DNA of 60,421 nt, the filler included, from Stramenopiles sp. TOSAG23-2 (taxonomy: Eukaryota), in the NCBI GenBank assembly GCA_900128395.1. It is 5 parts of 5 records of this genome, joined end to end, with 100 filler letters (N's around TTAATTAATTAA, not from the genome) between each part and the next. Parts side by side here need not be neighbours in the genome. Positions count along the whole stretch, not along the records: positions 36,418 to 48,377 come from LT649886.1; 4 more parts are not named here. One strand, written 5' to 3'. Below are positions 1 to 51,492 of this stretch, piece by piece; the first letter of the stretch is position 1; the number at the start of each line of letters is the position of its first letter. Below the pieces are notes generated by a model, which did not search any database, was not told the DNA's origin, and saw nothing but the letters and a program-made list of their open reading frames with translations. The position numbers and the translations under genes are program-made.

Positions 1-444
1 TTTGATAGGTTGAAATCGCCATTATTAAATTTTTCAACTTTTTTCATTTTTCGCGGCAAAGATTCAAACCAAATGTAGTTTAATGAATCGAGTACTACAT
101 TCCATCGACTAGTTTATATCGACAAATACATGAGATAACAATCTAACTAGTATAAATAATAATTAAAATACTCGATACATTTTGAAAAAACAAACAATTT
201 CAATCAAACTATATATATGACATAGATACATACATATATAATGTGCAAAGCGAGGATAGATCAATATAGATCAATAAAGAAAAAAACATATTTATCATAT
301 ATATTCAATTATTATACGTGTCTTTGTACGTGTGTTTGTGTGTGGTGAATTATTTGTAAGGATCCAAACTTTATTAATATTAAACAAATTATATTTAAAA
401 AAAAAATTAAATCATTTTCAAAAAAATAATTATTAAAAAAAATT

Positions 445-2187: not shown

Positions 2188-2612
2188 AGGAAGTACATTT
2201 TTAATGAGTTATATGTGACGACAAGAGGAGCTGCAGAAGGGCAGAGGATTTGAAGAGAGATGAGAGATTCTTTTTTTCGTGGTGTAGTTAGAACACATAA
2301 TAATATAAAAAGCATTTATATGTTGTGGTTAGTATTTTATTTTTTATTTTATTAAATATAAACAAATTTAACTCCAGAGTATTAGTGTTAATAATTAGAG
2401 CATTAAAAACTGAAGGTACTACATTAAAAAAGAATTAAAAAAACCTCACCAAACACCAAAACACCAAAATATACAACAAGAGACTCACTACTCACTACTA
2501 TCATCTCATCCATCTGACCATCTAATCATATCTCTCTAATCATTAATCTCTCTCTCCTCAGTCTCTCTCGCTCTCTCCTCTCTCCTCTCTCTCTCTTTCA
2601 CAAAAAAAAATC

Positions 2613-5600: not shown

Positions 5601-5965
5601 ATATTTTGATAAGTGATCTATATATCATATATTATTAATCTATTTATTGTATACTTACTGTTGCACAATAAAAACGTGAACCGGATACATCAGTCAATAC
5701 AAACCAAAAAAAGGTTGGTTTATTGATGGATATATTATTATTTTTCATACTGTTATTATTGTTATTTGACATATATGTTATATCAACATTATCAGGAAAA
5801 GCAAAAGATGCAACTTGATCTGGACGTATAGCATCTTTTGTTTTTTTTTTAATTTCTTTTTCAATTAAATGTGAATATTGTTTTTCAATCATTTGTTTTG
5901 TTGGAAATTGATCTAATACTTTTGGTTTGAATTGTATACCATTTGGTTGCGTTGAATTTTCAATT
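2613..5965 (-). CDS. DENN-domain Rab GEF-like protein with IQ motifs (mirror copy, 5'-truncated at the palindrome centre)
   Basis: Mirror of 6100..9452 with identical translation. Confidence 0.85.
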
Positions 5966-6099
5966 CTGTGTTGGTGTGTGTGTGTGTAAGGATATTGTTA
6001 GGTAATGGATTATTTTGTATCATTATATATATATATATATAATGATACAAAATAATCCATTACCTAACAATATCCTTACACACACACACACCAACACAG

Positions 6100-9000
6100 A
6101 ATTGAAAATTCAACGCAACCAAATGGTATACAATTCAAACCAAAAGTATTAGATCAATTTCCAACAAAACAAATGATTGAAAAACAATATTCACATTTAA
6201 TTGAAAAAGAAATTAAAAAAAAAACAAAAGATGCTATACGTCCAGATCAAGTTGCATCTTTTGCTTTTCCTGATAATGTTGATATAACATATATGTCAAA
6301 TAACAATAATAACAGTATGAAAAATAATAATATATCCATCAATAAACCAACCTTTTTTTGGTTTGTATTGACTGATGTATCCGGTTCACGTTTTTATTGT
6401 GCAACAGTAAGTATACAATAAATAGATTAATAATATATGATATATAGATCACTTATCAAAATATATTACAATTTTCACATTATTTTTTTATTAACAAATT
6501 ATATATAACATCCCCACGACAACACAGTTACATTTCTATGAACGTATTGATCCATTAGACGTTGCATGTTTATTTTTACATCATAACGATATTAAAAAAA
6601 CACCAAATTGGGCAGTCAATTCAAAACATACCGTCTATAGTAGAAAAGGTTTATGTGTTGTATCGAAATATCCATTTTTATGGCAATTACGACAATTTTT
6701 AAGACAATTATATCGTATAAGTATTTCCAATGCACCTGTACCAATTGAAAAATATATATCAAATTTTTGTGGTGAAGTTCCATTACCACCACGTGGTATT
6801 ATAGAAGTAAATATATCAATAGCAGATATATCCATCACATTGTCTCGACCACCATCAAATACATTACCACAAATTGGTAAACATTGTTTAGAAATATTAT
6901 TTGCAAGATTAAATGTTGATTCAGTGATTTTAATCTGGAGATTATTATTAATGGAAGTGAAAGTGATCATGGGGACTAAAACACGTTCCATTTTAACACC
7001 AACAATGGATGCATTATTAAATTTATTGTTTCCGTTTTATTGGGCTGGGGTATATATACCAGTATTACCACCAAGTTTAATGGATGTCATTGATGCACCG
7101 GTACCATATTTTGTTGGTATCTCGAATTATAAAACATTTCAATCAATATTACATAATCCTAGACGTCCATCGGATACATGTTTTGTTGATTTGGATACTG
7201 GTGATTTATATTATGATAATTTAAATGAAAAACCACAATTACCACAACATGATGGTGTGAAATTAATTAAACAATTATCAATATTAAATATTGATATAGC
7301 AAAAACAGAAGCATCCGATGCAGATAATGATAGTAGTAACAGCAATAAGAACAACAATAATGAACAACAAGAACGAAAAGCAACAACTACGTATCGTGGT
7401 AGTGTTAGTGAATCTATTGGTCGACCATGTTCCATATTATTACATCCAAATGATTTATTATTTCCTGATTGGGAACCATTAAAACCAATTGAAAATTTTG
7501 CATTGGAAGATGGCACAATTGAACATATGGATCATCATAGAAGTAGTATAGATCAAGATGGTAAAAACGTCGTACGCCGTAGCCGTGTCTTTAGTGATAA
7601 TTTAGGATTATCGACGTTACATGATACAAGAAGTAAACATAGTGGTAGTAAAACATTAAAAACAATTGGTGAAAATCGTGGATCAAATTTATCTGATACA
7701 ACAACAATTGAATTTCCTGATTTACAAGTACGATTAGCATTTTTACGTTTCATGACTGCATTTTTTCAAGATTATGAGAAATATATTATACATGAAACAA
7801 AGAAATTTAATGAAGAATTATTTGTGAAATCATTAGATAAAGTAGATCGTCCATTTGCATTAGTATTAATGCGAACACAACTATGGGATGGCTTTGTACG
7901 GGATCGTACCGACGGTGTAGGTAAAGATGGTGCATCTAGTCGTACAGATATAGGGTATTGTATACAATTTTTCAAAGAAAGTATATATAAAAAAATGAAT
8001 CGTAGTATTACATTACGAAAAAAATTTAAAACAAATTTTTTAGATTCCAATGAATTTAACCATCGTAATACATTCCATGCACCATTACCAATACCAGTAC
8101 TTCAACCAGATGGAACCATGTCACGATTTACATATACAAATGGATTTCCAAAATTATCAAATCAAAATTATGGTATAGTACGAAAACCACGTCGTATTGC
8201 TGATTATGAGACACAGCGACGTGCAAATGCTGCAGTGCAACAAATTTTAATGCATATGCATTTAACTACTGGATTTGCAATGGATAACGATGGTTATGAT
8301 GATGATAATGATGACAATGCAAGTGATGCAGGGGATGTAGAATCATTAGCGCCATTAGATCAATTAGTATTGCAAAATAATCGAAAGAAAAAACGACAAG
8401 AATCCATGGATGATATCAATGCAAATGAATTTAAAAAACGAGAGAAATGTATTATACATGCACAAGCATTATGGAGATGTAAAGTAGATTATCGTAATTA
8501 TCAAACAAAATTAGCAAGTATACGAACGATTCAAACCAATTGGGGTAGAATGAAGCAACGTACACCATTAATACGTAAACGTAATGCTTGTAAAAGAATA
8601 CAGAAATTATCACGTCATTTTTTATTTAAATTAAGACGATTAAATGCATCAACAAAAATTACTAGTTATCGTCGAATGTTATTAAAGAAACGTATGTATC
8701 AACAACGTCGACGAAATATTATTAAACGTCAAGCTATTTTTCGTGGATATTTAATACGTAAACAAGCGATTATATCACGTTATGAAAAAATTATAATATT
8801 ACGTAAAGAATTATTTGATTTATGGAAAATATTGGATAAACCTTTATTATATCGTGCAAAATTTTGGCTTTTATTTGGTAGTACTGATACAAAAAATATA
8901 CCATTTAAACAATTAGATATAAAACATAATCCAATTTATCATTATACGTTTTTAGAAATGGGTGTACATTTAGATGAAGTCGAACGTTTACGTATAGAAA

Positions 9001-9452
9001 AAAATCAACAACAACAACAACGAGGTGGTAGAAGAGGTGAAGAAGAGGAAGTGGAGGGAAATAATAACAATAACAACAATAATATGGAAGCAAAAACACG
9101 TATGCATAATCAAAATAAATTTAAACAATTTATTTTTAAACGTAAACCAGGTTATGAAAAACATGATCGTGATCATGTCTATGAACGTTTGAAATTAAAA
9201 GTACCAAAAGAAACACGCGAACGATATTTTAATATGTTTGGTTTAGATGGTGGAAAACGACGGAAACATCAATTAGCAGAACGTTTATTTATGAATTTAA
9301 ATGAATGTGATTTATCCAGCCAAGTCATGTTAAGTACAGTTGAACAAGATGATATTGGTGTTGATTGGGTATTAAATAAAAAATTACAACGTATTAATAA
9401 GAATATTTATGATACATTGAAAGGTACATTGAAAATGTTAGGTGGGCAGTGA
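6100..9452 (+). CDS. DENN-domain protein (uDENN-cDENN-dDENN) + IQ motifs + C-terminal DUF3490-like region; partial, join(<6100..6406,6528..9452)
   Basis: Acceptor CAG at 6097-6099 precedes FKPKVLDQFP (uDENN-like). Intron GTAAGT 6407..CAG 6527. Then GLCVVSKYPF, VPLPPRG, LLFPFYWAGVYIPVLP, DAPVPYFVG (cDENN), AFLRFM...TQLW (dDENN), and IQ-like IQTNWGRMKQR and RQAIFRGYLIRK. No start exon is present. Confidence 0.85.
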
Positions 9453-9877
9453 GATTTTTTTTTGTGAAAGAGAGAGAGAGGAGAGAGGAGAGAGCGAGAG
9501 AGACTGAGGAGAGAGAGATTAATGATTAGAGAGATATGATTAGATGGTCAGATGGATGAGATGATAGTAGTGAGTAGTGAGTCTCTTGTTGTATATTTTG
9601 GTGTTTTGGTGTTTGGTGAGGTTTTTTTAATTCTTTTTTAATGTAGTACCTTCAGTTTTTAATGCTCTAATTATTAACACTAATACTCTGGAGTTAAATT
9701 TGTTTATATTTAATAAAATAAAAAATAAAATACTAACCACAACATATAAATGCTTTTTATATTATTATGTGTTCTAACTACACCACGAAAAAAAGAATCT
9801 CTCATCTCTCTTCAAATCCTCTGCCCTTCTGCAGCTCCTCTTGTCGTCACATATAACTCATTAAAAATGTACTTCCT

Positions 9878-11620
9878 TTACCAATCCCCATTCACTGCAG
9901 CTTGTTTCTCTGCCGCTTCACGAAAATCTTTTTTAATATCTGCATATAATGGTGCTAAAAATGAATGTTCAAAATATTCCATATATGGTTTTAAACTAGT
10001 TTTATCCACATCAGAAATTTTCATACGTTTATTGCTACTATTACTTGTATCACCATCATCACCATTGATTGTATTCTTATGTAATGAAGAAGAAGATGAA
10101 TCTAATTCATCAGCTAATGATGCAACAGTTGGTGTTGTATGTGGATCCCATTCATCTACTTTAGTTGGATCAATTGGTACACAAACACGTCCTGTTTTTG
10201 GATGTACACACCATGGTGATTTCAATAAATGGTTTCTGTGCGTACTAACATTTACATCTAAACGTGGATAAACACTGTGCATGTTAAAATAAGAAAAATT
10301 TTGTTAGAACATATAAATGTACACAACGCAGTGATGGAACAGAAAAGTTCAACGATGACGACTCTAGATAGATAGATAAATAAATAGTACTTACTACATA
10401 AATATAATGCCATAATGCGCCGTTCTTAAATTACGTAAAGAATCACTAATTAAACGTCCTTTTCCTACTTTTTGTTGTTCTTTGTCACAATACAGTTGTA
10501 ATGTTTTTTTCAATTGTTCCCATCGTTGCCCTGCAGTTAAAGATTTATTTGAACGTTTTTCCCATTCTACTTTTAATGAGGATGCAATATCTTGTTGTGG
10601 TATATGGGATAAAATTTCATCGAAACCATTTGAATTACCACTTTCCAATAAACCTTGTCCAATTTTACCAGTACTTTCATCATTACCTTCACATACAAAT
10701 TTCACAAATTGTTCTTCCATGTATGGCAAGGAGCGTTCCAAGGATGGATGCAATGGGTATGTCAATGGTACACGGCTTGCACTACGTTCATTACCAGTCA
10801 CAACCGTTAAATAGTTGACAATTGCAGCACGGCTTTTATCATCTAATGTTCTTGCAGATTGATCGCATACCCAACAATGCACACCACGTCTACCACTAAA
10901 TATCCATAATAAATGTTTAAAATTGAAATCTTCACGTAATGCTTTATCGACTACTTTCACTGCCGTGGACATGAAATACCAACAATCTTTACCCATACCA
11001 CGTGATATATCTGCACCTTCTGCACCAACATCATCGTAATCGGTTAAATCGATATCAAATACCAATTCACGTTCTAATGGTTTGAATATATTAGAAGGTA
11101 TCATATCATGTTTGGATGGTTCATGGGAATAAACAGCACCAATATCAATTTTACGTGGTTGTTGTCGCATGATTTTTTTACGCATTTCCTCTGCATTTTT
11201 GAAATTTAAATAACGAATATAAACTTCTTCCCCACTTACATCCAATGTAAAGGATATCTCACGATGAAAAAAATATTCTGGTTGTCCCATTGTATCTTTC
11301 ATACCATATGTATTACCATATGATAACCAACGATACATTTCATTGTATGGAAATAGACTGTGATGTTTTTGTGTGTGTTTTTTTTTTGATTTGTGTTTGA
11401 TTATTTAATTTGTTAGTTTGATTGATTAATAATGGTTTTGTATGTATGGAATAGAATGAATAAATTGTAGAACTTACCGTGTATAATAAACATTTAATAA
11501 TTCTGCACTAAATTCTTGTGTACGTACTGTTTTAGGTACACTAGTTTCATCTGCCATATTCACATCTTCATCTTCGTTTTGTTGTTTTCCACCAGGTGAT
11601 GGTGCATTTACTAATTCCAT
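9878..11620 (-). CDS. PRIM1: DNA primase small subunit (mirror copy of 445..2187)
   Basis: Reverse-complement copy within the palindrome. Confidence 0.9.
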
Positions 11621-12064
11621 AATTTTTTTTAATAATTATTTTTTTGAAAATGATTTAATTTTTTTTTTAAATATAATTTGTTTAATATTAATAAAGTTTG
11701 GATCCTTACAAATAATTCACCACACACAAACACACGTACAAAGACACGTATAATAATTGAATATATATGATAAATATGTTTTTTTCTTTATTGATCTATA
11801 TTGATCTATCCTCGCTTTGCACATTATATATGTATGTATCTATGTCATATATATAGTTTGATTGAAATTGTTTGTTTTTTCAAAATGTATCGAGTATTTT
11901 AATTATTATTTATACTAGTTAGATTGTTATCTCATGTATTTGTCGATATAAACTAGTCGATGGAATGTAGTACTCGATTCATTAAACTACATTTGGTTTG
12001 AATCTTTGCCGCGAAAAATGAAAAAAGTTGAAAAATTTAATAATGGCGATTTCAACCTATCAAA

Positions 12065-36417: not shown

Positions 36418-36496
36418 TATTATTCTTGCGATTGAGTATTGAGCATATTACTTTAACACGAGAAGTGTAAAAATATTATAACTTAGATTTTAACCA
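36418..36496. repeat. ~80-bp dispersed repeat, copy A (opposite orientation to copies B-D)
   Basis: tattattcttgcgattgagtattgagcatattact...aacttagattttaacca is the reverse complement of 44148-44228 and 51143-51224. Confidence 0.9.
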
Positions 36497-36640
36497 ATAT
36501 TATCTAGATAGTCTTTAAAATATTTTATTTAATTAGCTTAATGCATAATTTATTTTAGTCTTTAAAATATATTATATTTTTAAAAATGCACACATTTTTT
36601 TTTACGAACACACACACAAATCTCCTTCCCAAATTTTAAA

Positions 36641-39019
36641 TCACACCCAAGATGCTTTAAAAAAATGTTCATCCGCCCAATATCTTCTACGTCGTTTATG
36701 TGGGATAAAAGTATGTGTTTTTTCTTGAGTGAAAAAATCTTTCCATTTTCGTGAATCTACACAACATCTACTGCATATACTACGTTTTTCATGATTAAAT
36801 GCTTTACAGAAATTACATTGCCATGAATGATCAGGAAATTTATAATCGTGTTTTTTATTGATGTATGCAGGTAATTTTTTACCAATTGATGGTGGATCAA
36901 TTGAAGGTGGTGGTGCAAAATTATCTAATAATCTAATTGTCTTCAAATTTTGAGCGTTTGCCATCGTATTTATCGCCATCAGCTCATCTGCCCCACGCTT
37001 TTTACGAGGCCGTCCAACAGGATTTTTCTTATTTGTAACTAGATTTCCACCTACAGGATTTTTACGAGGCCGTCCAACAGGATTTTTCTTCTTCTTTTCG
37101 CCATGTTTTCCCCCTTTTATTTCACCTTTGTCATTGTTATTATTATAAATACTTCCAGTATTACCATAAGAAGCATTATCCATACTAACTTTAGAAAGTT
37201 GAATCGAGTTTTCTAAATCATAAATTTCTTCAACAACTCCATCTTCATGATATACAACAGTATGAATATTATCACGCGGTCGAAAGTATCCAACACGTGC
37301 TTTACTCCATCTTTTTTCATATGGCAACCAAATCTCAACATCTTTTCCCGTCAATTTGGATGATCTTTTTTTATGTGTATGTTTTTTACAAAACGCAGCT
37401 AATTGAATTTTCTCTGAATTTTGACCACTTAAACGTTCTATACACATGTAAAATCCTTCTTTTTTTCCACAACTTGGATGGAATTTAAATTTACATGAAG
37501 GGATACTGCAATGAACAACTGCGCCATCTTTTTGACCACACACATCACAAAATTCTTCAAATAAATTGTTAGGTATTCTATCCAAAGATCCTTTTCTATG
37601 ATTATTTTTATCAATGGAACAAATAGGCTCCATTTTCTTATTATCTAAAAATCCAGCCTCGGGAATCCATAAAGCACAAAATGAATGTGCCCAGCGTCCA
37701 TCACTAGTCCGTCGCATTGCACCAAAATTTCCTCCATTGGGGCAAAAAATACACTTTGGGGGTTCCTGAAAGCCAGCATTGCATGTGTCACAATACCATT
37801 TATCAGGAGGTATTTTTGGAATATTATAACAGGATTGGTGAACACCAATATTACAACGATCACAAAAGATTATTTGATCAATAGCATTAGCATCGTCAAA
37901 ACATATTGTACATAAATCTGGTGAAAATTTTCCAAAATCTTCAATTGGTGCTTGTATTTTTTGTCGTGGCTTTGCACGTATAGGTTTAGGATCTTGTTTT
38001 TTCAATTTATAACTGCATGTTTTTTCATGTTCCGCTACCACATTGTATGTTCCAATAAAACCACAACGATAATCACATCCATATGTTTTTGGCTCATTAC
38101 GGCGGGGGGGCTCTTTATCATCATTTTGTCTAATTTCATCAGTTGTTGTTGATGTCAAATCCACAACAATATCATTGTTATCTAATAATGGTATTATATT
38201 ATTATTATTATCGACAGTGTTATCGTTATTATTTATATTATTATTAGTAGTAGTATGATTGTTGTTGTTGTTGTTGCTGTTATTCATTTGACAAGCATTA
38301 CAATGCCATATTAAAGGTGGATCAAGTTCAGATACAAAACCAACACAACAACCATGAAACCAATTTTGACACGTATCACATTGAACAGAGAAATGAAATC
38401 CATCCATAAATGGTGCGCCATTTCTTAAATAACACATATCTGTACACTGAACACCGTCATCTTCATAATAAATTTCATCTAAATTTATAAAATGGTCATT
38501 CGTATCATGTTGGTCGCGATTCACAACAGTTTCTTCACGTAAGAAATTCATACTTTCATCCAATACTCGATTGTTATTTAAATATTTTGTACAATTATCA
38601 TGACTATTAAATACTTGAAGCTTTGTGAAACGAGCTTTACATAGTGGACATGTATTTGTTACATCACTCCATGCTTTAATGCAAGAAATATGATATATAT
38701 GCTTACAATTATCCAACACGGCAAGTCCATCGTCATTTAATTTGTTTGTATCATCTTGCATATCATTAAGACATATTGGGCATGGTTCTTTTTCATCTAT
38801 TTCATATGGTGTTGGTTGTTTATTATTATTAATATCCTCACTATTATCAATAACCTTAGTGTTATTATTATCAATATCCTCAGTGTTATTATTATCAATA
38901 TCCTCAGTGTTATTATTATCAATATCCTTATTGTTATTATTATCAATATCCTCAGTGTTATTATTATCAATATCCTTAGTGTTATTATTATTCTGTTTTA
39001 TAACTCCTTGTTCCATCAT
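36641..39019 (-). CDS. Multi-zinc-finger chromatin protein: RING + PHD + PZP (PHD-Zn knuckle-ePHD) + Tudor-like + 2 AT-hooks + RanBP2-type finger
   Basis: Likely ATG at 39019. CPIC..CKHIYHISC..CPLC; QCDTCQNWFHGCC..WHCNAC; CTIC..FCDRCNIGVHQSCY..WYCDTC; CIFCP..GAMRRT..WAHSFCALWIPE; GRPRK x2; WQCNFCKAFN..CSRC. Confidence 0.88.
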   Translation of the reverse strand: MMEQGVIKQNNNNTKDIDNNNTEDIDNNNNKDIDNNNTEDIDNNNTEDIDNNNTKVIDNSEDINNNKQPTPYEIDEKEPCPICLNDMQDDTNKLNDDGLAVLDNCKHIYHISCIKAWSDVTNTCPLCKARFTKLQVFNSHDNCTKYLNNNRVLDESMNFLREETVVNRDQHDTNDHFINLDEIYYEDDGVQCTDMCYLRNGAPFMDGFHFSVQCDTCQNWFHGCCVGFVSELDPPLIWHCNACQMNNSNNNNNNHTTTNNNINNNDNTVDNNNNIIPLLDNNDIVVDLTSTTTDEIRQNDDKEPPRRNEPKTYGCDYRCGFIGTYNVVAEHEKTCSYKLKKQDPKPIRAKPRQKIQAPIEDFGKFSPDLCTICFDDANAIDQIIFCDRCNIGVHQSCYNIPKIPPDKWYCDTCNAGFQEPPKCIFCPNGGNFGAMRRTSDGRWAHSFCALWIPEAGFLDNKKMEPICSIDKNNHRKGSLDRIPNNLFEEFCDVCGQKDGAVVHCSIPSCKFKFHPSCGKKEGFYMCIERLSGQNSEKIQLAAFCKKHTHKKRSSKLTGKDVEIWLPYEKRWSKARVGYFRPRDNIHTVVYHEDGVVEEIYDLENSIQLSKVSMDNASYGNTGSIYNNNNDKGEIKGGKHGEKKKKNPVGRPRKNPVGGNLVTNKKNPVGRPRKKRGADELMAINTMANAQNLKTIRLLDNFAPPPSIDPPSIGKKLPAYINKKHDYKFPDHSWQCNFCKAFNHEKRSICSRCCVDSRKWKDFFTQEKTHTFIPHKRRRRYWADEHFFKASWV
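38842..38991. repeat. Coding 24-bp tandem repeat (DIDNNNTE-type) in the N-terminus of the RING/PHD gene
   Basis: Repeated ttatcaatatcctcagtgttatta units, about 6 copies. Confidence 0.85.
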
Positions 39020-40001
39020 CCTATTATTATAATTTATAATATATTTATCTTGTATATATATATATATACACTTTATTATGATTATGAAACGGCAGAAGAA
39101 AAAATCAACAAATAACAAGAGATGTAAAATAACAAGCACTCAAAAAAACAATTTCAAACAAGTAGTATTAAATGAAACATGTATGTTGAAACGGGAGAGT
39201 TGATCATTCATTCATCTACTAAAGTATTATATATATAATTTATTATGTATCTTTTTTTTTCGCAAATAATAATTAAAATCGCGCGCAGCACCGCAATCAT
39301 CCAGGGCACCAGGCCCAGCAGGCCCAGCAGGCCAGCAGGCAATCATCATCCCAGTAAATTCGGCACGGGTAATGGTATGTCCATCGTAACCCCAAAAAAA
39401 TATTCACAGTTTTGGGATTTTTTCACGCTAGGCTGACACAGCACCGTCTTAAGATTTTCATTTTGCGGGAAAAATTCCTCCACGAATTTTTATCGCCAAC
39501 CCTACCCTCCAACCACGCCCCTTAAACACCTCTCGAGACCCCAAATCATTTTCGGATAACGCCTGCTGTGTGGTGCTAATGACTTGCCGTCTAAGATTTT
39601 TGGGAACGTCAATTATATAAGGATGCTATTTCGATTGGGCGGGAATGGAACACGAAAATGAAAGCTTTGGGAATCGTTACTGCCTACTTCAATATAGAAA
39701 AAATACAAACGGCGAATGGAATTCACCATTAATAACAGCCTGTTAATGAGTAGAACCAGAAAAACGCATTTTTAGAGAGCGTTAAATGATATTTCTATAG
39801 TACAAAACAATCGCACGGGGATGGCGAATAAGTAAAAAATATACGGGGAATAAAATAAAACCAATACAAATGTATAAACAACGATTGATGTTATATTATT
39901 TACATACACAAACGCACAACAAATACAAAGACCGAACACAAACTGTATTATTAACCAAACCACCAAGCCAACGAACAAACACCTGTTTAACAAATAGAAA
40001 C

Positions 40002-43000
40002 ATGATTATCTTTTGCCCAAAGCACAACCATAAGCCTTTCCCACCACCGGAAGACACCACACATACAGACGAAGTCTGGATCGGATCACGATCCAGTCGT
40101 ATCTCTACTATTGTAGCAAACATCGATGGAACCATCTATTTATACTTTCATGAAGCACCGCAAGCATTGAACAAAGTGCTACGCGATGTGTACACATCCA
40201 AACTGTCTGCTCGTTTATCCGAACTGGAGAAGGACCAAGAAAAACATGCTATCAAACTGATTCGGGCGGCCAATGCTACGATCAAGGATCCGTTGATCCC
40301 AAGAAGTGTATCGGTATATGAATTGAAACGAGTGCAAGAAACCTTCGCCAAGTACGATGCCTTATACAAATCAAAACAAACAGTCACCTCCTATTCCAAA
40401 ACGCAGGTGAAGAACGCATTAAAGGCGTACGCAGAAGAGAAAACCAAGCAAGAGGTTGGTGCACAACATACCTTGGAGAAAACCAAAAAGCAATTGTTGG
40501 TAAAATTGAAACAATACAAGGGCTTATCGACTGCAAAAAACGATGATACCTTGTGGAAACGCGAAGGCATCTATCACATTGATGAACAAGAGCGTTGCAA
40601 CCTTCTTAAATCTGCGTTTGATTTACCGCAAGAAAACAAACCAAAAAAGCCTAAGCTAGAATCGTGGATGCGTAAAATGGTGAAACATTGCGCAGACTAT
40701 TACGAATCCCATTATTTGAAGGCCGCGGATAAAGCAGTTGTGCGAATCGCAGAAACATGCGCATCCATTGTTCGCGGTTCGAAAAAGTCAATCACCGCCG
40801 AAGGAATTCTACGCAGTGCTGGATACGACAGCAACGGGAACGTCAAACTAATTAAAAAATACGGTTTAACCAGAGCGGAGGGCTCTGGTACATTGAAAAA
40901 TAATGTAGCTGCGCTACGAAAATGTTTCTACATCATTAATATGGCTGCTTTGAAGCAAAGCCTGTCCATCAAAAGCCATCCCATCCGTGTATTAGACGGA
41001 ATCCATCAAAGTCTCAAAGGACTGTCGGTAGTCGGCAACGGAAAAGAAGAAATCGATTTGGGTATATCCAACAAGGACAAAAAAGAATTTGCTCAGCAGA
41101 TGGTCCGTTGGGTGAAAGACCAACATGTTATCAACGATTTTGAAACCTTGCAACAAGCATTACTAGCACGTGGCATCACCTTTGACCAAGAAAAAGAACG
41201 CAAAACACAGCGAACCAACAATGTCGACAAAATAAAAAGAGACATGTTGACGCTAACATTCTGGTATCCATTGTACCCACTGGCAAAGATGCGAAACCGT
41301 ATCGCTGGTAAAAACATTGGTTCAAGCATCGATGCCTTGATACAAACCTTGGTAACCAACACCAACAGTGAGATGTATACCAAGTTTTATTGTTGCACCA
41401 TCGCACAGGCCAAAATTGTTGCTGACACAAAAAAAGAAAGCAAAAGCAACAAAAATCCAATGGTGTATGGCCTTCCAGATGTCTCGAAATTGGAGCTCTT
41501 GTTTGCATTTACCTCGCATGTACAAACACATGCACCCGCGATGGCATTTGCACGACTCGCCGTCACCTTATGGCAATCCTACATGTTCAAAGAAACCAGC
41601 GTACGGGCTGCTACATGTATGGTGATACGTCTTCAATCGTTGGCCGATTACAACCAGTGGGCAAATCTATGTAAACATTATACAGAGCCCAACCTAGGCA
41701 TTGATTGCATTGTGTATGGCAACGACAAAGTGCAAGTGAAAAAGCTGGAATCAAAAGATATCTTGCAACGTATGCCGCCGGTCAGTCAAGTGTACGGAGA
41801 TGCCAACAAAGATTTTATCAAAACCTACTTTCGCAAAGAACACCCGGTCTTCTTTCAATTCTTTGACATGGCCAAAAAAGCTTATGAGATATTGACTGGC
41901 AACGATACCATCACAGCAACTTCCACGGAGCGCAGAGAATACATCTCTGGTTACCAACAAGGCGGTGGGTACAAACAAATCAAATTGAATGTCTTTCCAC
42001 ACACGGATACGCCCACCTATGCACAAGCTTCGCCATGGTACATGTACGCAGCATCCGAAGTGGGTCAGCATTCAACCTTTGAGCTATCCCCCATCGAGCG
42101 AGGCAATCTCTTCAAGAAGGTGCCAGTCAAAGGTGGAAACAAGACAAAACAACGGTTCAAGTCCATGTTAACCCGCACGGAAAAAGTGGTTAGCGGGTCG
42201 GTGAAAACCACCAAACTGGCTTACTGTACGGCCCCGCCAGTAGCGATGCAAACATTGACCACACGTCATGTCAACGATTCTAGCTTTGGTTCTCACCTGC
42301 AAAAGAAACATGCAACTGTATTGCGTCAAAGCATGAGTGGGTCCAGCGTAACCATGACTCGCAGCGAATGGTGCATTGACAACGATGTAGAGATTACTTT
42401 TGATGTTCAATCCTTGATTGGAACACCAAGAGTATTTGGTGGGACATGGACCCAGGCACATTTGGATTCCTTGCGAATCACCACGGCGTACCAATCGCAC
42501 CCAGAAAGTTTGGGTCGCTACATGTCTGGTCAAGATGCATTGGCCTGTGAAAAATTTGACGCCGAATTCAATATTTTATCGCATGAAAAAACCCTTGCAT
42601 ACAACACAATGCGCGTCGCCAACCAAGAAAAAAGCAATGGCCATACCAAGCATATCATGGAAAAACATTATGATATTTACACCGACGACGAGTTGAAAAA
42701 ATGCTCTCGTTTTGGCAACGACAAAGCCACCATCATTGATAGAGGGTCAGCGTTACCTTATTGGGTTCCCTCCAGGAGCATAGAGGGGTTGGAATTGGTA
42801 TACACGGGTGAACGCACTTCCATGCCCGCGATTACTCCAATTGAAGAGAAATGGGGACACGTGAACACATTGACCCTTCAACAAGAGTGTGCCATCAAAA
42901 CCATGATAAAGCGATTTGTGTGTGAGATTGTGGCTCGTAAAGACCACGGAATCAAAAACTGGCGTGCGGATTTAAAAGACGGTCATGGTGTCCATACTGC

Positions 43001-43208
43001 CTTGGCCAACCATTTCAATGACGTGGAGCATATTCAAGAGAAAATGCTACAAGAATGGATTCGCAAACACCCAAAAGAGTTTCAACAACGATTTGGAATT
43101 GCGGAACGTATTGTGCATTGGTGGCGTACATGTTGCTGCTTCCACCGAAAACGAAAACGAACAAGCAGCAAGTTTACACCGTACAAAAAACAAAAACAAC
43201 CCGAGTAA
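40002..43208 (+). CDS. Large orphan protein with a putative divergent tyrosine recombinase catalytic domain
   Basis: Likely ATG at 40002 (MIIFCPKH). ETSVR (R codon 41604), HLDSLR (R codon 42474), NGHTKHIMEKHY (H 42642, Y 42669; H-to-Y spacing of 9). C-terminal basic NLS-like RKRKR. Confidence 0.55.
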   Translation: MIIFCPKHNHKPFPPPEDTTHTDEVWIGSRSSRISTIVANIDGTIYLYFHEAPQALNKVLRDVYTSKLSARLSELEKDQEKHAIKLIRAANATIKDPLIPRSVSVYELKRVQETFAKYDALYKSKQTVTSYSKTQVKNALKAYAEEKTKQEVGAQHTLEKTKKQLLVKLKQYKGLSTAKNDDTLWKREGIYHIDEQERCNLLKSAFDLPQENKPKKPKLESWMRKMVKHCADYYESHYLKAADKAVVRIAETCASIVRGSKKSITAEGILRSAGYDSNGNVKLIKKYGLTRAEGSGTLKNNVAALRKCFYIINMAALKQSLSIKSHPIRVLDGIHQSLKGLSVVGNGKEEIDLGISNKDKKEFAQQMVRWVKDQHVINDFETLQQALLARGITFDQEKERKTQRTNNVDKIKRDMLTLTFWYPLYPLAKMRNRIAGKNIGSSIDALIQTLVTNTNSEMYTKFYCCTIAQAKIVADTKKESKSNKNPMVYGLPDVSKLELLFAFTSHVQTHAPAMAFARLAVTLWQSYMFKETSVRAATCMVIRLQSLADYNQWANLCKHYTEPNLGIDCIVYGNDKVQVKKLESKDILQRMPPVSQVYGDANKDFIKTYFRKEHPVFFQFFDMAKKAYEILTGNDTITATSTERREYISGYQQGGGYKQIKLNVFPHTDTPTYAQASPWYMYAASEVGQHSTFELSPIERGNLFKKVPVKGGNKTKQRFKSMLTRTEKVVSGSVKTTKLAYCTAPPVAMQTLTTRHVNDSSFGSHLQKKHATVLRQSMSGSSVTMTRSEWCIDNDVEITFDVQSLIGTPRVFGGTWTQAHLDSLRITTAYQSHPESLGRYMSGQDALACEKFDAEFNILSHEKTLAYNTMRVANQEKSNGHTKHIMEKHYDIYTDDELKKCSRFGNDKATIIDRGSALPYWVPSRSIEGLELVYTGERTSMPAITPIEEKWGHVNTLTLQQECAIKTMIKRFVCEIVARKDHGIKNWRADLKDGHGVHTALANHFNDVEHIQEKMLQEWIRKHPKEFQQRFGIAERIVHWWRTCCCFHRKRKRTSSKFTPYKKQKQPE

Positions 43209-43369
43209 AAAAGCTTCCTATAAATGTATACCGGTATTACGTAATGAATGTATTACATGCTATTGTACACGGGCAGTATATTCCTACTGCTCCTATTTAT
43301 TTCCATCTGACATGCCGCCTACCATTTAACAACACTATCATCCTTATCAAAAACCTACAATTTAAAGGG

Positions 43370-43555
43370 ATGCAATCACGATTATTGTTTCAACAACTTG
43401 AAACCGATTCCCACGTGATTGTTGAACACAACCTTAATAAAGTATACCTAGCCACTTCCAATTTTACAAAAAGCGCGACATTTATCCTACTGGACGCAAA
43501 ACGACTCACTCCAGAAGAGTTACCAACGCTAGCGTATCCCCCCTTACGGACATAA
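43370..43555 (+). CDS. Small hypothetical ORF in the element (MQSRLLFQQLE...)
   Basis: ATG-initiated 61-aa 3' part of ORF 43055..43555; element-like composition. Confidence 0.3.
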   Translation: MQSRLLFQQLETDSHVIVEHNLNKVYLATSNFTKSATFILLDAKRLTPEELPTLAYPPLRT

Positions 43556-43585
43556 GCGCTTTCTTCTTGGCGAGCAGAACTGTAC

Positions 43586-43825
43586 CTATAACATTCTGCT
43601 CACAAAAAACAAAACAGGTTCACTATAGAGTTGTAAAACGAAGTGAACCGCTGATCGAAAGGTAGGGTCGGCAATATCAAACCGTATCCAATGATGATAA
43701 CATCTTTCTTGGTTAATATATATTGCCCTCGTTTCGTTCACTTGTGGGGACAACGCATTATATGCAAAATGTTCCTTGGCACGGTTCACGCTTGTATTTG
43801 TGTAACATGGTTGTTGTTGGTCCAA
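43586..43825 (-). CDS. Small hypothetical ORF, possibly 5'-truncated by the adjacent AT-rich cassette
   Basis: 79-aa ORF with a TTG start that abuts the (TTTA)n tract. Confidence 0.3.
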   Translation of the reverse strand: MDQQQPCYTNTSVNRAKEHFAYNALSPQVNETRAIYINQERCYHHWIRFDIADPTFRSAVHFVLQLYSEPVLFFVSRML

Positions 43826-43905
43826 TGTATGTATTTATTTTTAATTTTATTTATTTATTTATTTTATTTATTTATTTTTATATTTCAAGATTCAAGTTTT
43901 GGTTA

Positions 43906-44088
43906 TTAGAGTGTTTGCGCGTCTAATGGTGGATGCCTGCTAGAAATCCTAAATTATTTTTAGAAAATATTAGCAGGGCGATACCACAAGACGCGCAAAG
44001 GGTCTAAGACAATTTGGATTGCTAAAGTGTCTTAGAGCATTTGCTCGTCTATTAGCAGGTGATTACCACAAGACGAGCAAAGTGTCTA
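43906..44088. repeat. Hairpin repeat cluster: full unit 43906-44007 plus an internally deleted unit 44032-44088
   Basis: Stems tttgcgcgtct/agacgcgcaaa, tggt/acca, cctgcta/tagcagg, ctaaa/tttag; second unit tttgctcgtct/agacgagcaaa. Confidence 0.85.
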
Positions 44089-44147
44089 TGTTTGGCAATC
44101 AAAAATGTATTCGAGTATATGGAAAGCATTTTAAGATAAAAATAAAT

Positions 44148-44228
44148 GATGGTTAAAATCTAAGTTATAATAATTTTACTTCCCGTGCTAAGTAATATGC
44201 TCAATACTCAATCGCAAGAATAATATTC
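44148..44228. mobile_element. 81-bp SINE-like dispersed repeat, copy B, with a 16-bp target-site duplication
   Basis: Flanked by identical taagataaaaataaat at 44132-44147 and 44229-44244. Confidence 0.75.
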
Positions 44229-44661
44229 TAAGATAAAAATAAATAAAATATTTATTGAAGTGCATCATTAATAAAATTGCTGATCCAAATCAGCGACATG
44301 GTGGTGGACAACCGGTGACAAACATGACATTGGAAATTTTACATGAGGATTAAAGTGAATTTTAAAATAGCAGTGTGATAGATATAAATATTTCCTTGAA
44401 ACAAATTATTAAAAAGATGTTAGTGATTTTTTATAAAATAACAGCTGTCCGGACCCACCATATCATAATATAAAAGTTCTTTTACTCATATATTTTATAA
44501 TTTTATTCATATGATATAAATGATGTATATGATATATTTTATTCATATGATATATATAACATATTACATACGCATAAAACATAAGCAAAAGATTTGATAT
44601 TTGAATTATTAGTACTCGTAAATTATATAATAATAATACGATATATGAATGAAATTTTCGA

Positions 44662-45900
44662 TTATTGCGCAGTTAATGCAACCATTGTTGATAGAACCAA
44701 AATGGCAATATTCGAAGACGAAGTTAATATGCCACTGCTTGTGTCTAATTCATCATCTGTGGTAGTATTACCAGTTGCACTAGTAGTTGCTGCCAAAGTT
44801 GTCGTTGCTGCCAAAGTTGTCGTTACTGCCGAAGTTGTCGTTGGACTTGCTGTTGTTGTTGGGGCTACATAGCATATTCCTTTTCCATCCGTACAGCAAT
44901 TTGACTCCAAAACTGACATCACTTGTTTTTGACCTGTAGTTAGACCTGCACAAGTTATACTAGTCCAATTGACGCTTGTTAAATCAGGATTAGTGCTAAC
45001 TTGTACATCGCAGGCAGCAGCGCCATTCGGAGATGTAAATATTGCCGCACCATTGTAATTACTTGGATTAAGACATGTCTTGGAATAATCAAAGCACAGA
45101 TCTCTTCCATCCGTACAGCAATTTGACTTAAAATAAGTTGAAATCGCGTTTTTTTCAGCTATAGTTAGACCTGCACAAGTTATACTGTTCCAACTGACAT
45201 TCGCTAATTGAGGCGAATTACTAGCGTGTACATCACAGGAAGCAGTGCCACCCGGAGATGTAAATATTGCTGAACCGTTGTAACTACTTGGATTAATACA
45301 CATCTTGGAATAATCTACCCCATGGCACAAATCTTTTCCATCCATGCAACAACCTGCACCAATATTTCTGTTTGAAAGGTCTTGCTTTTGCGAATAACTA
45401 AGGTCTGCGCAGGTTAATGTTGCAAAATTTAGTCCAGAAAACATATGTGGAATCGCGCCCAGGCAAGCCACATTATTCGACGAACCCACAAGAATACTAG
45501 AACCATTAAATTGAGATGGATCTTTACAAATTCGAGAAGCATTTTCGTAGCAGATACTTTTCCCATTGCAGCAGCCAGTTTGAAATGGTTCTTCAAGCAA
45601 TTTAAATCTTTGGTCTTGTGTAAAACTATTGGAAGAACATGAGGTAACGCCTGTCCAATTTTTATAACTTGGTGATGTAGTATTTTCATAATCACTAAAC
45701 ACTTTCACAACACCATCAATACTTACTCCAGATAAATATTGGTCACACGTAACAGTATTTCCATATATATTTATGGTTGCAGACCCTGAATAATCACTTG
45801 GATTTAAGCAACTTTTTGATCTGTCTTGAGCAACGGAAGTTGACATTGTTAAAGTGATAACAACCAGTGCTAATATTGTTGTAGTTCGTAAAAAATACAT
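44662..45900 (-). CDS. Cys-rich repeat cell-surface protein (signal peptide, four ~74-aa repeats, Thr-rich stalk, GPI-like C-terminus)
   Basis: N-terminal TTTILALVVITLTMSTSVA; repeats C.NPS.Y.G.A...CD...TC..L...QK...CC.DG..(I/L)C; 222-bp nucleotide period (ttccatccgtacagcaatttgact at 44883 and 45105); hydrophobic tail IAILVLSTMVALTAQ. Confidence 0.85.
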   Translation of the reverse strand: MYFLRTTTILALVVITLTMSTSVAQDRSKSCLNPSDYSGSATINIYGNTVTCDQYLSGVSIDGVVKVFSDYENTTSPSYKNWTGVTSCSSNSFTQDQRFKLLEEPFQTGCCNGKSICYENASRICKDPSQFNGSSILVGSSNNVACLGAIPHMFSGLNFATLTCADLSYSQKQDLSNRNIGAGCCMDGKDLCHGVDYSKMCINPSSYNGSAIFTSPGGTASCDVHASNSPQLANVSWNSITCAGLTIAEKNAISTYFKSNCCTDGRDLCFDYSKTCLNPSNYNGAAIFTSPNGAAACDVQVSTNPDLTSVNWTSITCAGLTTGQKQVMSVLESNCCTDGKGICYVAPTTTASPTTTSAVTTTLAATTTLAATTSATGNTTTDDELDTSSGILTSSSNIAILVLSTMVALTAQ

Positions 45901-46175
45901 GTTTTATAAATAGGTTAACAATTCGAAAAGGAAAAAATATATAGAATATTTGTTTTTGTTTTTTGTTGTGATATTAGAATGCAATTGGTAAAACCGGAAT
46001 GGTTTAATACTTAATTATTTTTATTTGGCACTTTACATTTGATGATAAAAGGTAAAATCCGCTCAAAAATGGATGGACATTCAACGGGATTTTGAGATTA
46101 GTGGTATACCAATGCTATTTTTAGGAGGGTGCCAGAGAATAATAATTAACAGATAGGATCATTTTATTGGATGTG

Positions 46176-46262
46176 TTAGAGTGGTTGCTCGTCTAATGAT
46201 AGATGCCTACTAGAAATCCTAATTTTTTTTTAGAAAATGTTAGCAGGGTGATACCACAAGAC
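46176..46262. repeat. Direct-repeat partner of 43906-43992 (87 bp, 9 mismatches)
   Basis: Ungapped hand alignment at offset 2270. Confidence 0.9.
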
Positions 46263-46314
46263 ACAAAAATATATATTTTTTTACAGATAAAGTTACAGTA
46301 GGATTATGGTGCAA

Positions 46315-46830
46315 TTATTCACTCTCTCTCTCTCTTTCTCTTGCTGCAAATGTTTCTCGATGGGCCCTTGCTTGCAATCCAGATTTTTTTTCTGACCACG
46401 ATGATTGACCCGCGCATGTAACATTGTCTGCATCACGCAGCTGTGCCAATTCCAATTGCCTGTTACGGATGCCAATTTCATGTACTAAATAGGACATACC
46501 AAAGCCGTTGTATGTACGCAATATATCATTCAGAAATTGTAATTCGCGTTCTATCACATCCTGCTTCTTGCGCGCTTCACGTATTTTTGTATAATGGTAA
46601 TACTGATGAAATATTTCAAACGCATTTACCCGATAATCTGATGCCAGCAGTGCTTCTTTATCGCTAACCAATTTTGTTGTAAGCGTTAGAAACCGTTCAA
46701 ACGGCATGTCGGTCTTCAATACCAGAGCCATTACCTCATACAGGTTGAGTGTCTTGGATGTTAGCAGTTGTATCACACGTTGTTGTTTAAAGATATCTTT
46801 TTCCCCGAGAAATTGAATCTTAGACGACAT
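46315..46830 (-). CDS. Hypothetical protein (element ORF)
   Basis: 171-aa ATG-initiated ORF; TATAAAAG 18 nt upstream. Confidence 0.6.
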   Translation of the reverse strand: MSSKIQFLGEKDIFKQQRVIQLLTSKTLNLYEVMALVLKTDMPFERFLTLTTKLVSDKEALLASDYRVNAFEIFHQYYHYTKIREARKKQDVIERELQFLNDILRTYNGFGMSYLVHEIGIRNRQLELAQLRDADNVTCAGQSSWSEKKSGLQARAHRETFAARERERESE

Positions 46831-46882
46831 TTGATAAACATAACATTTCTTTTATAGGGTCAAACGGTTGTAAAAGTTTTTA

Positions 46883-47790
46883 TCACATGCGTATGGTAGG
46901 AATTTTTGGCTCAATGAAGTCTATTAACCGCTTGAATAGCTGCTTTAGCGCGAGAAAATTCTTCACCGCGTCCCGGATTTCCTTCTGGGTAACATGGAAC
47001 CCCTTTTGTACCCTACCTAATTTGACAAACAGAAATTCAAGGCCTTCAAGTTTCAAGACTGGATTAATACCTTTTAGAATAGCCTCACGGTAGAGGCGTT
47101 CTATCCACTGCTTGGTGTTTTCTTTGGAGAAACCCCGGGATTTCAGCATAAACGATGGAAGAAACATGTCTTGCTCGGCTTCTTTATCTTCTTCGTTTTC
47201 ATCGTCCGTTGTGACTTCGCGATATTCTTTCGGCTGTGCAAGCACTTCCAGCGGCTGCTGGGTATCCAACGTTATTTGCCGCCGCTCATGCCATTGCTGT
47301 TCAAGCTGTTTGTAATCCGGACCAATGGCATAACCTCGGTGAAGCTCTAGATTCCCTGGGGTATTCTCCTTGGGAATTAAAGTTGGTTTTAATCTGCGTT
47401 TTTCATTTGGCTGGGCAGAGGGCACCCGTAAATGCTGCGGTGTCTCGTTCAACCTAGCGCCCTCTTCCACCTCCTGAACCTGTCTCACAAATGCCGGGGT
47501 GTTCTTCACGTCTCGTTTCTTATACTGCCGCGGGGTGGGAGAAGGGTCCGNNNNNNNNNNNNNNNNNNNNNNNNNNNNNNNNNNNNNNNNNNNNNNNNNN
47601 NNNNNNNNNNNNNNNNGTTGGGAGAAGGGTCCGACGGTGACATCGCCATAAACTGTTGGGTTAAACTGGACGCTTGATTTTTGGCGATGGATACATCCGA
47701 AAGCTCATTGGTGAGCGTTGCCAATTCGTCTTGGCACGTCTCCAACAAGATAGCTAATTTTCTCAAACGTTTATGAATTGTATCTTCCAT
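46883..47790 (-). CDS. Hypothetical protein (element ORF) spanning the N gap at 47551-47616
   Basis: MEDTIHKR...SDPSPN[gap]DPSPTPRQYKKRDVKNTP joins ORFs 47506..47790 and 46883..47509; gggagaagggtccg occurs on both sides of the gap. Confidence 0.6.
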
Positions 47791-47919
47791 GGTTTATCCA
47801 TTTTCACTAAGCTTATATAGTGCCTAGCGCCCAGAGCGACTTTTCGATTGACTTGAAGTATCAACATTGCTGGCATAAAATCGCCGGAGCACCTATTTAA
47901 ATAACAAGATGACCTACCA

Positions 47920-48270
47920 ATGAAATCAAAACACAAGAAACTCAAACAGAAACGAGCGGAACTGGCTATCTTAATTACCCGCAAGGCGTTTAAAACATAC
48001 AACGCCTATGTAACCGCCTCCTGCATTGTACAAAATCTTCAACCCATGCTGGTTGCCAACCGCGAGAAGTTTATCGCTGCCTTCACCAAGAGGGTATCTG
48101 CGCCGTTATACCACCTCACCGACGATGCGGAACAATCCAAACGCCATGTGATATCTTTTCTGAGGCGGTTGGCTCACTACTATGGGAATTTCTTAGCATC
48201 CAAGCGAAAATCTATCGTTGTCAATGGCAAGACTATCTCTCAATATTCCTACGCGCTGGTGAAAGTGTGA
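47920..48270 (+). CDS. Small basic hypothetical protein (element ORF), possibly DNA-binding
   Basis: 116 aa, Lys/Arg-rich; TATTTAAA 18 nt upstream; divergent from the 47790 ORF. Confidence 0.6.
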   Translation: MKSKHKKLKQKRAELAILITRKAFKTYNAYVTASCIVQNLQPMLVANREKFIAAFTKRVSAPLYHLTDDAEQSKRHVISFLRRLAHYYGNFLASKRKSIVVNGKTISQYSYALVKV

Positions 48271-48377
48271 AGTGTTCACTTGCGGAAAAACGGAAAAAAA
48301 TGCAAGGTTTCACATGCTGGAGATTCTGGCGATTTCACAAGTGCCAACTGCCGGCAGGTGGCAGATGACTTTTGCCC

Positions 48378-50964: not shown

Positions 50965-51142
50965 TTCACAAAAAAGGAGATGGAGTATTTAATACCACGT
51001 ACGAATGATGTATCGGTTAGATAGATATGTGTGTGTGTGTGTGTGTGTATGTGCATGTGTAAATTAAGCTGCCAGCTGGATATTTTATAATAATATGATA
51101 TATCGATATGCATATGTATTTTTTTATTTAATTTAATAATAT

Positions 51143-51224
51143 ATGGTTAAAATCTAAAGTTATAATAATTTTACACTTCTCGTGGTAAAGTAATATGCTC
51201 AATACTCAATCGCAAGAATAATAT
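51143..51224. repeat. ~80-bp dispersed repeat, copy C
   Basis: atggttaaaatctaaagttataataatttt...gtaatatgctcaatactcaatcgcaagaataatat. Confidence 0.9.
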
Positions 51225-51492
51225 GCTATCCTACTATAATAAAGCTCTCCTGACGTCGTCGCAAGCTCTCATGCGCCACCGCAAGCTAATACTCCATAAG
51301 CACAAGTAGGTTTAATTTAATATATATACGAAGTAATATATAAATGTGTGCATATCATAATATTTTACGACTATAAAATACATGAATAATAAAAATCATT
51401 TTATTAATATATCAATATCGCATATATATATATACAAGCTTGTATCATATGTGAAAAATATTCGTACATCATGTTCGAAGCATAATATAAAA

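Follow-up and report, generated by a model that had tools for sequence, protein, structure and literature searches.

The repeats that bracket a single gene in the 60,421-nucleotide stretch of DNA analysed here (the window), taken from the assembly of the uncultured marine protist Stramenopiles sp. TOSAG23-2 (GCA_900128395.1), belong to a conserved and structured hairpin family of low to moderate copy number that is tied, across the genome, to variable surface and secreted genes. The window consists of contigs of ~12 kb strung together via N linkers. One of them, C1808 (window 36418-48377), holds the locus in question; the assembly as a whole is eukaryotic and AT-rich, amounts to 32.8 Mb and has matches in marine runs. 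The first-pass annotation had viewed this locus as a possible integron-like gene cassette lying between attC-like hairpins and next to a recombinase. The explanation that we favor, at a confidence that stops just short of even, is that the hairpin is a cis module (a terminus, a terminator or a preferred breakpoint) of non-autonomous gene-carrying transposons, probably of a rolling-circle-like type, and not a dedicated site of ORF1, the large open reading frame (ORF) upstream of it.

At the window locus, the 87-bp direct repeats with nine mismatches (43906-43992 and 46176-46262) were confirmed. The left unit, W1, is a complete unit of what we call type A with outer arms that extend to 44007 (43906-44007), and it forms the nested hairpin that had been claimed for it: -26.2 kcal/mol as single-stranded DNA, z -7.5 on the plus strand and -6.3 on the minus strand, with none of 200 shuffles folding as well and 124.6 bits against the covariance model of the family. 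In the linker that follows (44003-44033), the facing outer arms of neighboring units are predicted to make a small hairpin. The next unit, W1b (44032-44088; z -3.6), is an internally deleted type-A unit in which the reported compensatory change, G to T on one arm and C to A on the other, is present on both arms. The right copy, W2 (46176-46262), a type-A unit located 284 bp upstream of the cargo ATG, was correctly described as lacking the outer 3' arm, and its folding is no better than that of shuffled sequence (z -1.1; 31 of 200 shuffles as good). The canonical attC boxes, RYYYAAC and GTTRRRY, are absent from both strands of W1, W1b and W2, as had been noted. Two further statements hold in part. 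The repeats do enclose one gene, but W1b lies between them too, as does a member of a high-copy family of host repeats (44140-44230). The composition switches, said to coincide with the repeats, are roughly there, but not exactly: GC content drops from ~0.40 to 0.29 at ~43800 and climbs to 0.42 at ~46400, with the cargo gene itself at 0.39, in a setting where host genes have ~0.32 and the coding DNA from 39346 on has 0.39-0.44.

The family was built by DNA and pattern searches, a covariance model and a hidden Markov model (HMM) over 53 stretches (333 kb) that were chosen for carrying related DNA, so the unit counts are a lower bound. At least 27 units on 15 contigs were recognized by the HMM, 15 of type A and 12 of type B; one weak match was dropped from this tally, and a deleted unit in C683 went undetected. 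Type-A units form arrays of two or three in C1808, C8588, C3750 and C9131 and are solo in C625, C782, C3637 and C2410. Mosaics of hairpin, linker and hairpin are also formed by the repetitive extragenic palindromic (REP/BIME) elements of bacteria, which these arrays resemble. Among 20 aligned units, 82.4% of the cells are paired, and four type-A units other than W1 fold at z -5.1 to -7.5. Type-B folding is weaker, as two of the three B units folded failed against shuffles (the C618 unit at z 0.25 and the C6165 unit at z -1.9). In 75 of 100 pairs the B loop resembles the A loop more closely once the latter is reverse-complemented, which may be read as an inversion between the arms that separates the two loop types. 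In C782 and C625 the left flank is complementary to what lies past the right arm, an arrangement that suggests fold-back copying of units. A bias of G-T pairs towards one strand (43 on the plus strand versus 18 on the minus strand) was left unused, as 18 come from one pair and the B units are probably partly inverted. The best Rfam match reached 24.9 bits, against a gathering score of 160. A pattern scan of metagenomes proved too loose, returning 119 stretches, of which 80 were tested with the model and two were real; one of these, L087, is 100% identical to C3637, and L101 is the only new one.

The type-B units lead to a larger, gene-carrying element that we refer to as family P. All but two or three of the 12 stand at a fixed position, where they close a constant left block of ~520 bp that is found in at least 11 contigs, and past this block the P copies diverge into different secreted-protein genes. 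The other end is closed by a right block of ~300 bp in C618 (~2.4 kb), C1360 (~4.3 kb), C625 and C6165. The 15-bp repeat CTGTGCTGTGTCCCC occurs twice in the element, ~50 bp in from the left end and, inverted, at the very right end, giving asymmetric terminal inverted repeats of which both are present in C618 and C1360. The sequence ACAG(C/T)ACAG stands before seven of ten left ends and also ends the right block, and 9-bp terminal direct repeats match at nine of nine positions in C618 and eight of nine in C1360. Putative hairpins occur at the termini, with a clear stem beside the right repeat and a short one of 5-7 bp at the left. In C1360 and C1585 the end block and the hairpin are tandemly duplicated, and in C782, C8588 and the metagenome contig L101 type-A units stand in place of the right block.

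Ten P copies carry cargo ORFs of 130-793 amino acids (aa) that fall into seven or eight unrelated groups, and in four of them Pfam recognizes lipase-3, MACPF or ephrin-receptor-like Cys repeats. A hydrophobic N-terminus is shared by 8 of the 10 P cargos and by the window cargo, versus 21 of 133 background ORFs, a background that includes some of the cargos. On the strand opposite the P cargo there is often a gene, or the remnant of one, for a transmembrane leucine-rich-repeat (TM-LRR) protein. Within the 53 stretches, this TM-LRR(-LNR) receptor-like family was encountered only beside the ends of P or of E, the element that contains ORF1 (C656, C5566, C1316, C4151 and C782). In C4849 (L226 1934-3607), the P left end precedes a Cys-rich gene with a MACPF domain (E 1.4e-25).

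The positions at which these sequences diverge tend to cluster at the hairpin arm. Six P copies have a further upstream block of ~400 bp in common, a putative shared promoter. This block ends exactly at (A/G)GACGAGCAA, a decamer of the hairpin arm, in C782 and C683, and within ~15 nt of the decamer in C4151 and in C1360/C7418. Of the junctions downstream of the units, four independent ones are placed exactly behind ...ACG(A/C)GCAA, and another two lie within 4 nt of that point. A candidate rule that the hairpin always lies 300-600 bp upstream of a gene was discarded: it describes 14 of 20 units, but the B units cannot be counted as independent cases, and genes are closely spaced throughout this genome.

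We propose that a single-strand enzyme acting on folded DNA, most likely a Helitron2-type rolling-circle HUH transposase encoded elsewhere, nicks the hairpin arms or comes to a stop there. Bypass of an arm, followed by a renewed start, would give rise to tandem units, to several alternative ends and to the capture or exchange of the adjacent gene, and the elements retained would be those in which the shared promoter is followed by a gene for a secreted or surface protein. A rolling-circle type is the most plausible because of the asymmetric repeats, the tandem termini and the left end of E, which starts with TC after an A. Helitron2 elements combine asymmetric terminal repeats with hairpins and multiple termini (PMC5148889), and for Helraiser hairpin terminators, end-bypass and capture have been shown (PMC4778049). 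Family P resembles Helitron2/Helentron elements in its asymmetric terminal inverted repeats, putative terminal hairpins, multiple or tandem termini, captured genes and lack of a clear target duplication, while the start of E after an A is a likeness to Helitron1. The differences are that the P repeat is offset by ~50 bp, compared with 20-40 bp in PMC5148889; that the P ends abut ACAG(C/T)ACAG-type sequence instead of a T-rich target (TTTT^T/C or TT); that a nested hairpin of ~100 bp lies 350-450 bp inside the P end; and that the P cargos are whole ORFs behind one promoter, mostly secreted.

Several observations weigh against this explanation. At ~100 bp, the nested unit greatly exceeds a Helitron terminator in length. 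Helitron1 elements close at the 3' end with a short hairpin and CTRR|T; the CTAG that follows four type-A units was considered as such an end and rejected, because its pairing partner is the left arm of the same unit, hence it is not a canonical Helitron end. No transposase with P ends, and no RepHel partner, was found among the 40 of 79 candidates that were scored, no search for Rep/Helitron families having been made, and the P terminal block does not occur in the window contig, C1808. The divergence in C1585 lies ~50 nt before the decamer. The 20 aligned units contain 20 double-change cells versus 12.0±2.6 after shuffling, but the shuffles ignore relatedness; moreover, fold-back copying alone can yield compensated arms, and as such copying is suggested in C782 and C625, compensation need not mean selection. 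The terminal direct repeats of P also fit tyrosine-recombinase elements, as PMC3212892 and PMC10104507 describe them. Finally, the left end of E and the P terminal repeat have the decamer GACACAGCAC in common, and E derivatives and P carry one TM-LRR-like gene family, so that E and P may share one enzyme after all. A further motif common to both, GACACAGCA(C/T), is only a weak link between them, because it is present in host intergenic DNA too.

A simpler scenario, anticipated in part by the 'host MITE' (miniature inverted-repeat transposable element) alternative of the first-pass annotation, requires no hairpin-specific enzyme: an ordinary small palindromic MITE-like repeat would gather in the accessory, transposon-rich promoter regions of secreted genes, and the cargo would change by ectopic homologous recombination between copies or by slippage. 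This is consistent with the solo copies that adjoin unrelated genes (an ankyrin gene in C3637, a MORN gene in C2410, and others in C791 and upstream of C1360), with the many deleted or decayed units (W2, W1b and the B units of C618 and C6165), and with a loop-variant contig in the run X1 that has a depth of 335 versus ~4 for single-copy DNA, so that hairpin copies may far exceed the assembled number. There is also a precedent in Fusarium oxysporum, where mimps are associated with effectors (PMC11499160) and a short palindromic repeat marks the promoters of secreted genes in accessory DNA; the unit described here differs in being part of a larger mobile element, in forming tandem arrays and in having no consistent target duplication. 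That last point, for which one possible CCA pair in C782 is the sole candidate, also separates the family from MITEs of the DDE type, as does the clustering of the at least 27 units in P and in arrays. The fixed position of nearly all type-B units in P, the clustering of junctions at the arms and the arm decamer at the boundary of promoter and cargo would not be expected from random insertion. We consider the passive repeat unlikely, though it deserves serious attention. Random scatter and flanking target duplications were both lacking, and the MITE alternative as first worded is incomplete, the hairpin being chiefly a component of a larger family of elements that carry cargo.

The integron-like scenario supposes ORF1 to be a highly divergent tyrosine recombinase acting on folded hairpins, P copies to be enzyme-less platforms composed of a promoter and an attI-like arm decamer, and the window gene to be a cassette. 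The likeness lies in imperfect nested hairpins of similar size, and in variable single genes that stand behind a shared upstream block and are joined to it near a short arm motif, several cargos beginning at or close to the arm decamer. Integron attC sites, according to PMC8876359, have a 7-bp core, GTTRRRY, and its inverse, RYYYAAC, neither of which is seen here. Furthermore, the cargo is directly followed by a hairpin in only one of ten P copies (C625), with at most two genes between hairpins and no multi-cassette arrays. Because two of the attC features examined, the core boxes and the gene plus downstream site in arrays, were lacking, we do not file the family as an integron. Of the original cassette reading, what survives is that the window gene is inserted in a hairpin array; the general lack of a hairpin downstream of cargos and the degenerate right unit speak against the remainder, and we rate the integron-like scenario as distinctly improbable.

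The structure of the insertion itself bears on this question. An array linker (44089-44108, plus strand) that in C8588 continues unbroken up to the following unit, as its close variant in an X3 contig also does, is broken off in the window after ATGT (44105-44108), and a second ATGT (46171-46174) ends the interrupting segment. Comparison with the C8588 linker would thus make the window gene part of a 2066-bp insert (44109-46174) within a type-A hairpin array, the array being located in the cargo slot of the larger element E. The remnant of a second type of array linker precedes W2 (46157-46175, plus strand; it resembles the linker between units b and c of C3750 and that of X2/X4), because of which the insert may have brought a hairpin unit along with it. 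The borders of the insert fall in linkers and not at the hairpin foot, contrary to what cassette exchange at folded hairpins would lead one to expect. The cargo gene (44662-45900, minus strand) encodes 412 aa, without a significant Pfam match, and the product has a signal-peptide-like N-terminus, Cys-rich repeats of ~75 aa, a Thr-rich stalk and a hydrophobic C-terminal tail that resembles a glycosylphosphatidylinositol-anchor signal. A paralogue with 34% identity in C3013 has no hairpin.

The integron-like scenario gives the part of the recombinase to ORF1 (39870-43208, plus strand; 1112 aa from the first ATG and 1069 aa from 39999), which had been named a recombinase and to which no family could be assigned. 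There was no Pfam match, the best PHROG match had an E-value of 0.16, and neither PDB profiles nor the Atlas gave a match. The AlphaFold2 model of ORF1 has a mean predicted local distance difference test (pLDDT) score of 31.8 and that of the domain of its C2418 homologue a score of 51.3, and no fold match was obtained for these low-confidence models: Foldseek with ORF1-family models returned none at E<=0.001, and the best VIA match (Z 5.9) covered a helical hairpin only. Alignment by hhalign with the Xer-like proteins of the genome was not significant (E 0.35-0.39). The name thus finds no confirmation in Pfam, PHROG, PDB profiles, hhalign, two AlphaFold2 models or two fold searches, although a recombinase fold would still be compatible with these results. 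Homologues at 16-24% identity occur in C1535, C2418 and C1394, the C1394 element being duplicated in C1632. These homologues retain a residue series, R...K...(H)LR...GR(Y/H)...Y, that lends some credibility to a tyrosine recombinase, but the window ORF1 is the most divergent copy and lacks three His residues kept by the other homologues.

Nor did the proposed link between the hairpin and its neighbor ORF1 find support, as the hairpin adjoins one of the four ORF1 lineages found. The relatives in C1535, C2418 and C1394/C1632 have no hairpin by covariance model or HMM, and in C1394 a PHD gene occupies the slot where the window has its hairpin, the order being ORF1 homologue, small ORF, PHD gene, ORF5 homologue and DUF5906 primase-helicase. 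The same is true of four Xer-like (PF00589) recombinase loci, none of which has a copy of the family; a 23.6-bit match at one of them was rejected as an unrelated palindrome. Among the viral contigs searched there was no relative of ORF1 or of the hairpin. The motif and the cargo family that E and P have in common would also be accommodated by the integron-like scenario.

Population data offer a further argument for a cassette. Contig depths are available for four of 24 runs listed, all in the form of contigs and from runs picked for holding the stretch, and such depths should not be equated with copy numbers. Backbone and cargo contigs are alike in depth (3.9-5.5) in X1, which may be the source of the assembly, whereas in X2 backbone contigs have depths of 8.2-14.3 and cargo contigs 3.4-3.6, and a contig of depth 11 begins inside W2 and is continuous through ORF2; X3 and X4 point the same way. 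The lower depth of the cargo hints that the hairpin is fixed in this E lineage and the gene is not. Contigs of X2-X4 also include hybrid joints of both the deletion type and the circle type, as an excising cassette might produce, but each side of these joints spans 25-46 nt, less than the length of the repeat, and other arrays explain them equally well.

The cassette might also be a chimera that arose at palindromes during amplification or assembly, given that the first contig of the window (1-12064) is entirely a perfect 6032-bp inverted repeat without a spacer, probably an amplification or assembly fold-back, and that in X1 no contig among 32 of ~2100 pieces bridges 45699-46237. Yet tandem hairpin arrays recur in three other studies (X2-X4) and in the independent metagenome contig L101, and X1 contigs match 44201-44688, 44698-45699 and 46237-46691 without differences. 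An artifact of this sort seems to us very improbable.

Two other groups of mobile elements invite comparison with the transposon explanation that we prefer. Crypton and Starship elements (PMC3212892 and PMC10104507) have, like P, short terminal direct repeats that possibly match the target and, like E, a large leading gene followed by cargo. Relatives of E differ from them in encoding a DUF5906 primase-helicase, ORF1 is unconfirmed as a tyrosine recombinase, and the descriptions consulted mention no internal hairpin arrays for Cryptons or Starships. Replitrons, which occur in stramenopiles, share short terminal direct repeats and a right-end hairpin (PMC10288648), but no HUH gene was seen beside any hairpin copy, no dedicated HUH search having been made.

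Even on the conservative reading, this protist harbors a transposon family in which nearly every copy has a different secreted or surface protein behind a shared upstream block. Among the cargos are proteins with Cys-rich repeats, one that resembles a lipase, one with a MACPF domain and a TM-LRR receptor, and such a family would be a candidate means by which free-living predators rapidly renew their interaction proteins, comparable to the effector-carrying elements of fungi. A eukaryotic analogue of the integron, in which an enzyme on folded hairpin arms (ORF1 or another partner) swaps secreted and surface genes behind a fixed promoter on P and E, is a long shot; if true, it would equip a free-living protist with a programmable set of secreted and surface proteins. 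Were exchange site-specific at the hairpin arm, it would represent a cassette system of a kind without a eukaryotic example in the literature searches made for eukaryotic integrons, which listed prokaryotic work only.

The element E and its relatives appear to be an unnamed replicon family in their own right. The left end of E (39346-39990, plus strand) begins with TCATCC after an A and is common to derivatives that lead into other genes; an A precedes the TC in four of five aligned copies. It matches C654 at 88% over 732 bp and C6098, C656, C5566 and C5419 over ~40-220 bp, and in these five contigs it leads into different sequence, with a TM-LRR-family relative in C656 and C5566. In C654 (L029 8092-9271), a deletion derivative of E, the left end and the first ~45 codons of ORF1 are fused in frame to a fragment of ORF5. 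A second allele of window 36418-41590 is present in C3712 (L022), 97.4% identical overall and ~93% in ORF1, and some X1-X3 contigs resemble a diverged 5' half of ORF1. A small ORF of 166 aa (43055-43555, plus strand) comes next in E, and in C1394/C1632 its homologue (E 4e-9) is likewise the ORF after the ORF1 homologue. ORF2 (171 aa) and ORF3 (with an N gap inside) occupy 46315-47704 on the minus strand, and no family was found for either. At the contig end (47905-48377, plus strand), ORF5 and a 100-bp segment are common to the primase-helicase element of C1394/C1632 (90% identical in DNA), ORF5 itself having 53% identity to its counterpart in C1394 and 26% to that in C1535; DUF5906 primase-helicase genes are present in both of these relatives. 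The C1394 element (L054/L055), duplicated in C1632, is ~17 kb long and combines a 1054-aa ORF1 homologue and the PHD-finger cargo with a SWIM ORF, small ORFs and tandem repeats of 64 bp and 25 bp, and Pfam detects no capsid family in it.

Several further repeats were noted. In C1535 two direct copies of an AT-rich palindrome of ~140 bp (L023 6373-6534 and 6869-7036; z -7.0) have the ORF1 homologue on one side and the primase-helicase gene on the other, and in C2339 (L257 867-985) a long, near-perfect palindrome lies ~500 bp downstream of an Xer-like recombinase gene; both were considered as relatives of the window hairpin and set aside as unrelated in sequence. Another repeat family, with the motif GGGACACAGCACAG and differing flanks, was seen in C665 (L239 7757), C1037 (L241 16) and C7636 (L243 309). 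A segment of 52 bp (46318-46368) has an inverted copy, 94% identical, that adjoins the C791 hairpin. RNA runs contained 0.14-0.26 of the words. The high-copy host repeat of ~90 bp, unrelated to the hairpin and with 650 candidates genome-wide of which 40 were scored, has three copies in the window (44140-44230, 36418-36503 and 51135-51228), and many of its copies run on into an A followed by TCCTACTAT, a sequence that resembles a Helitron 5' start.

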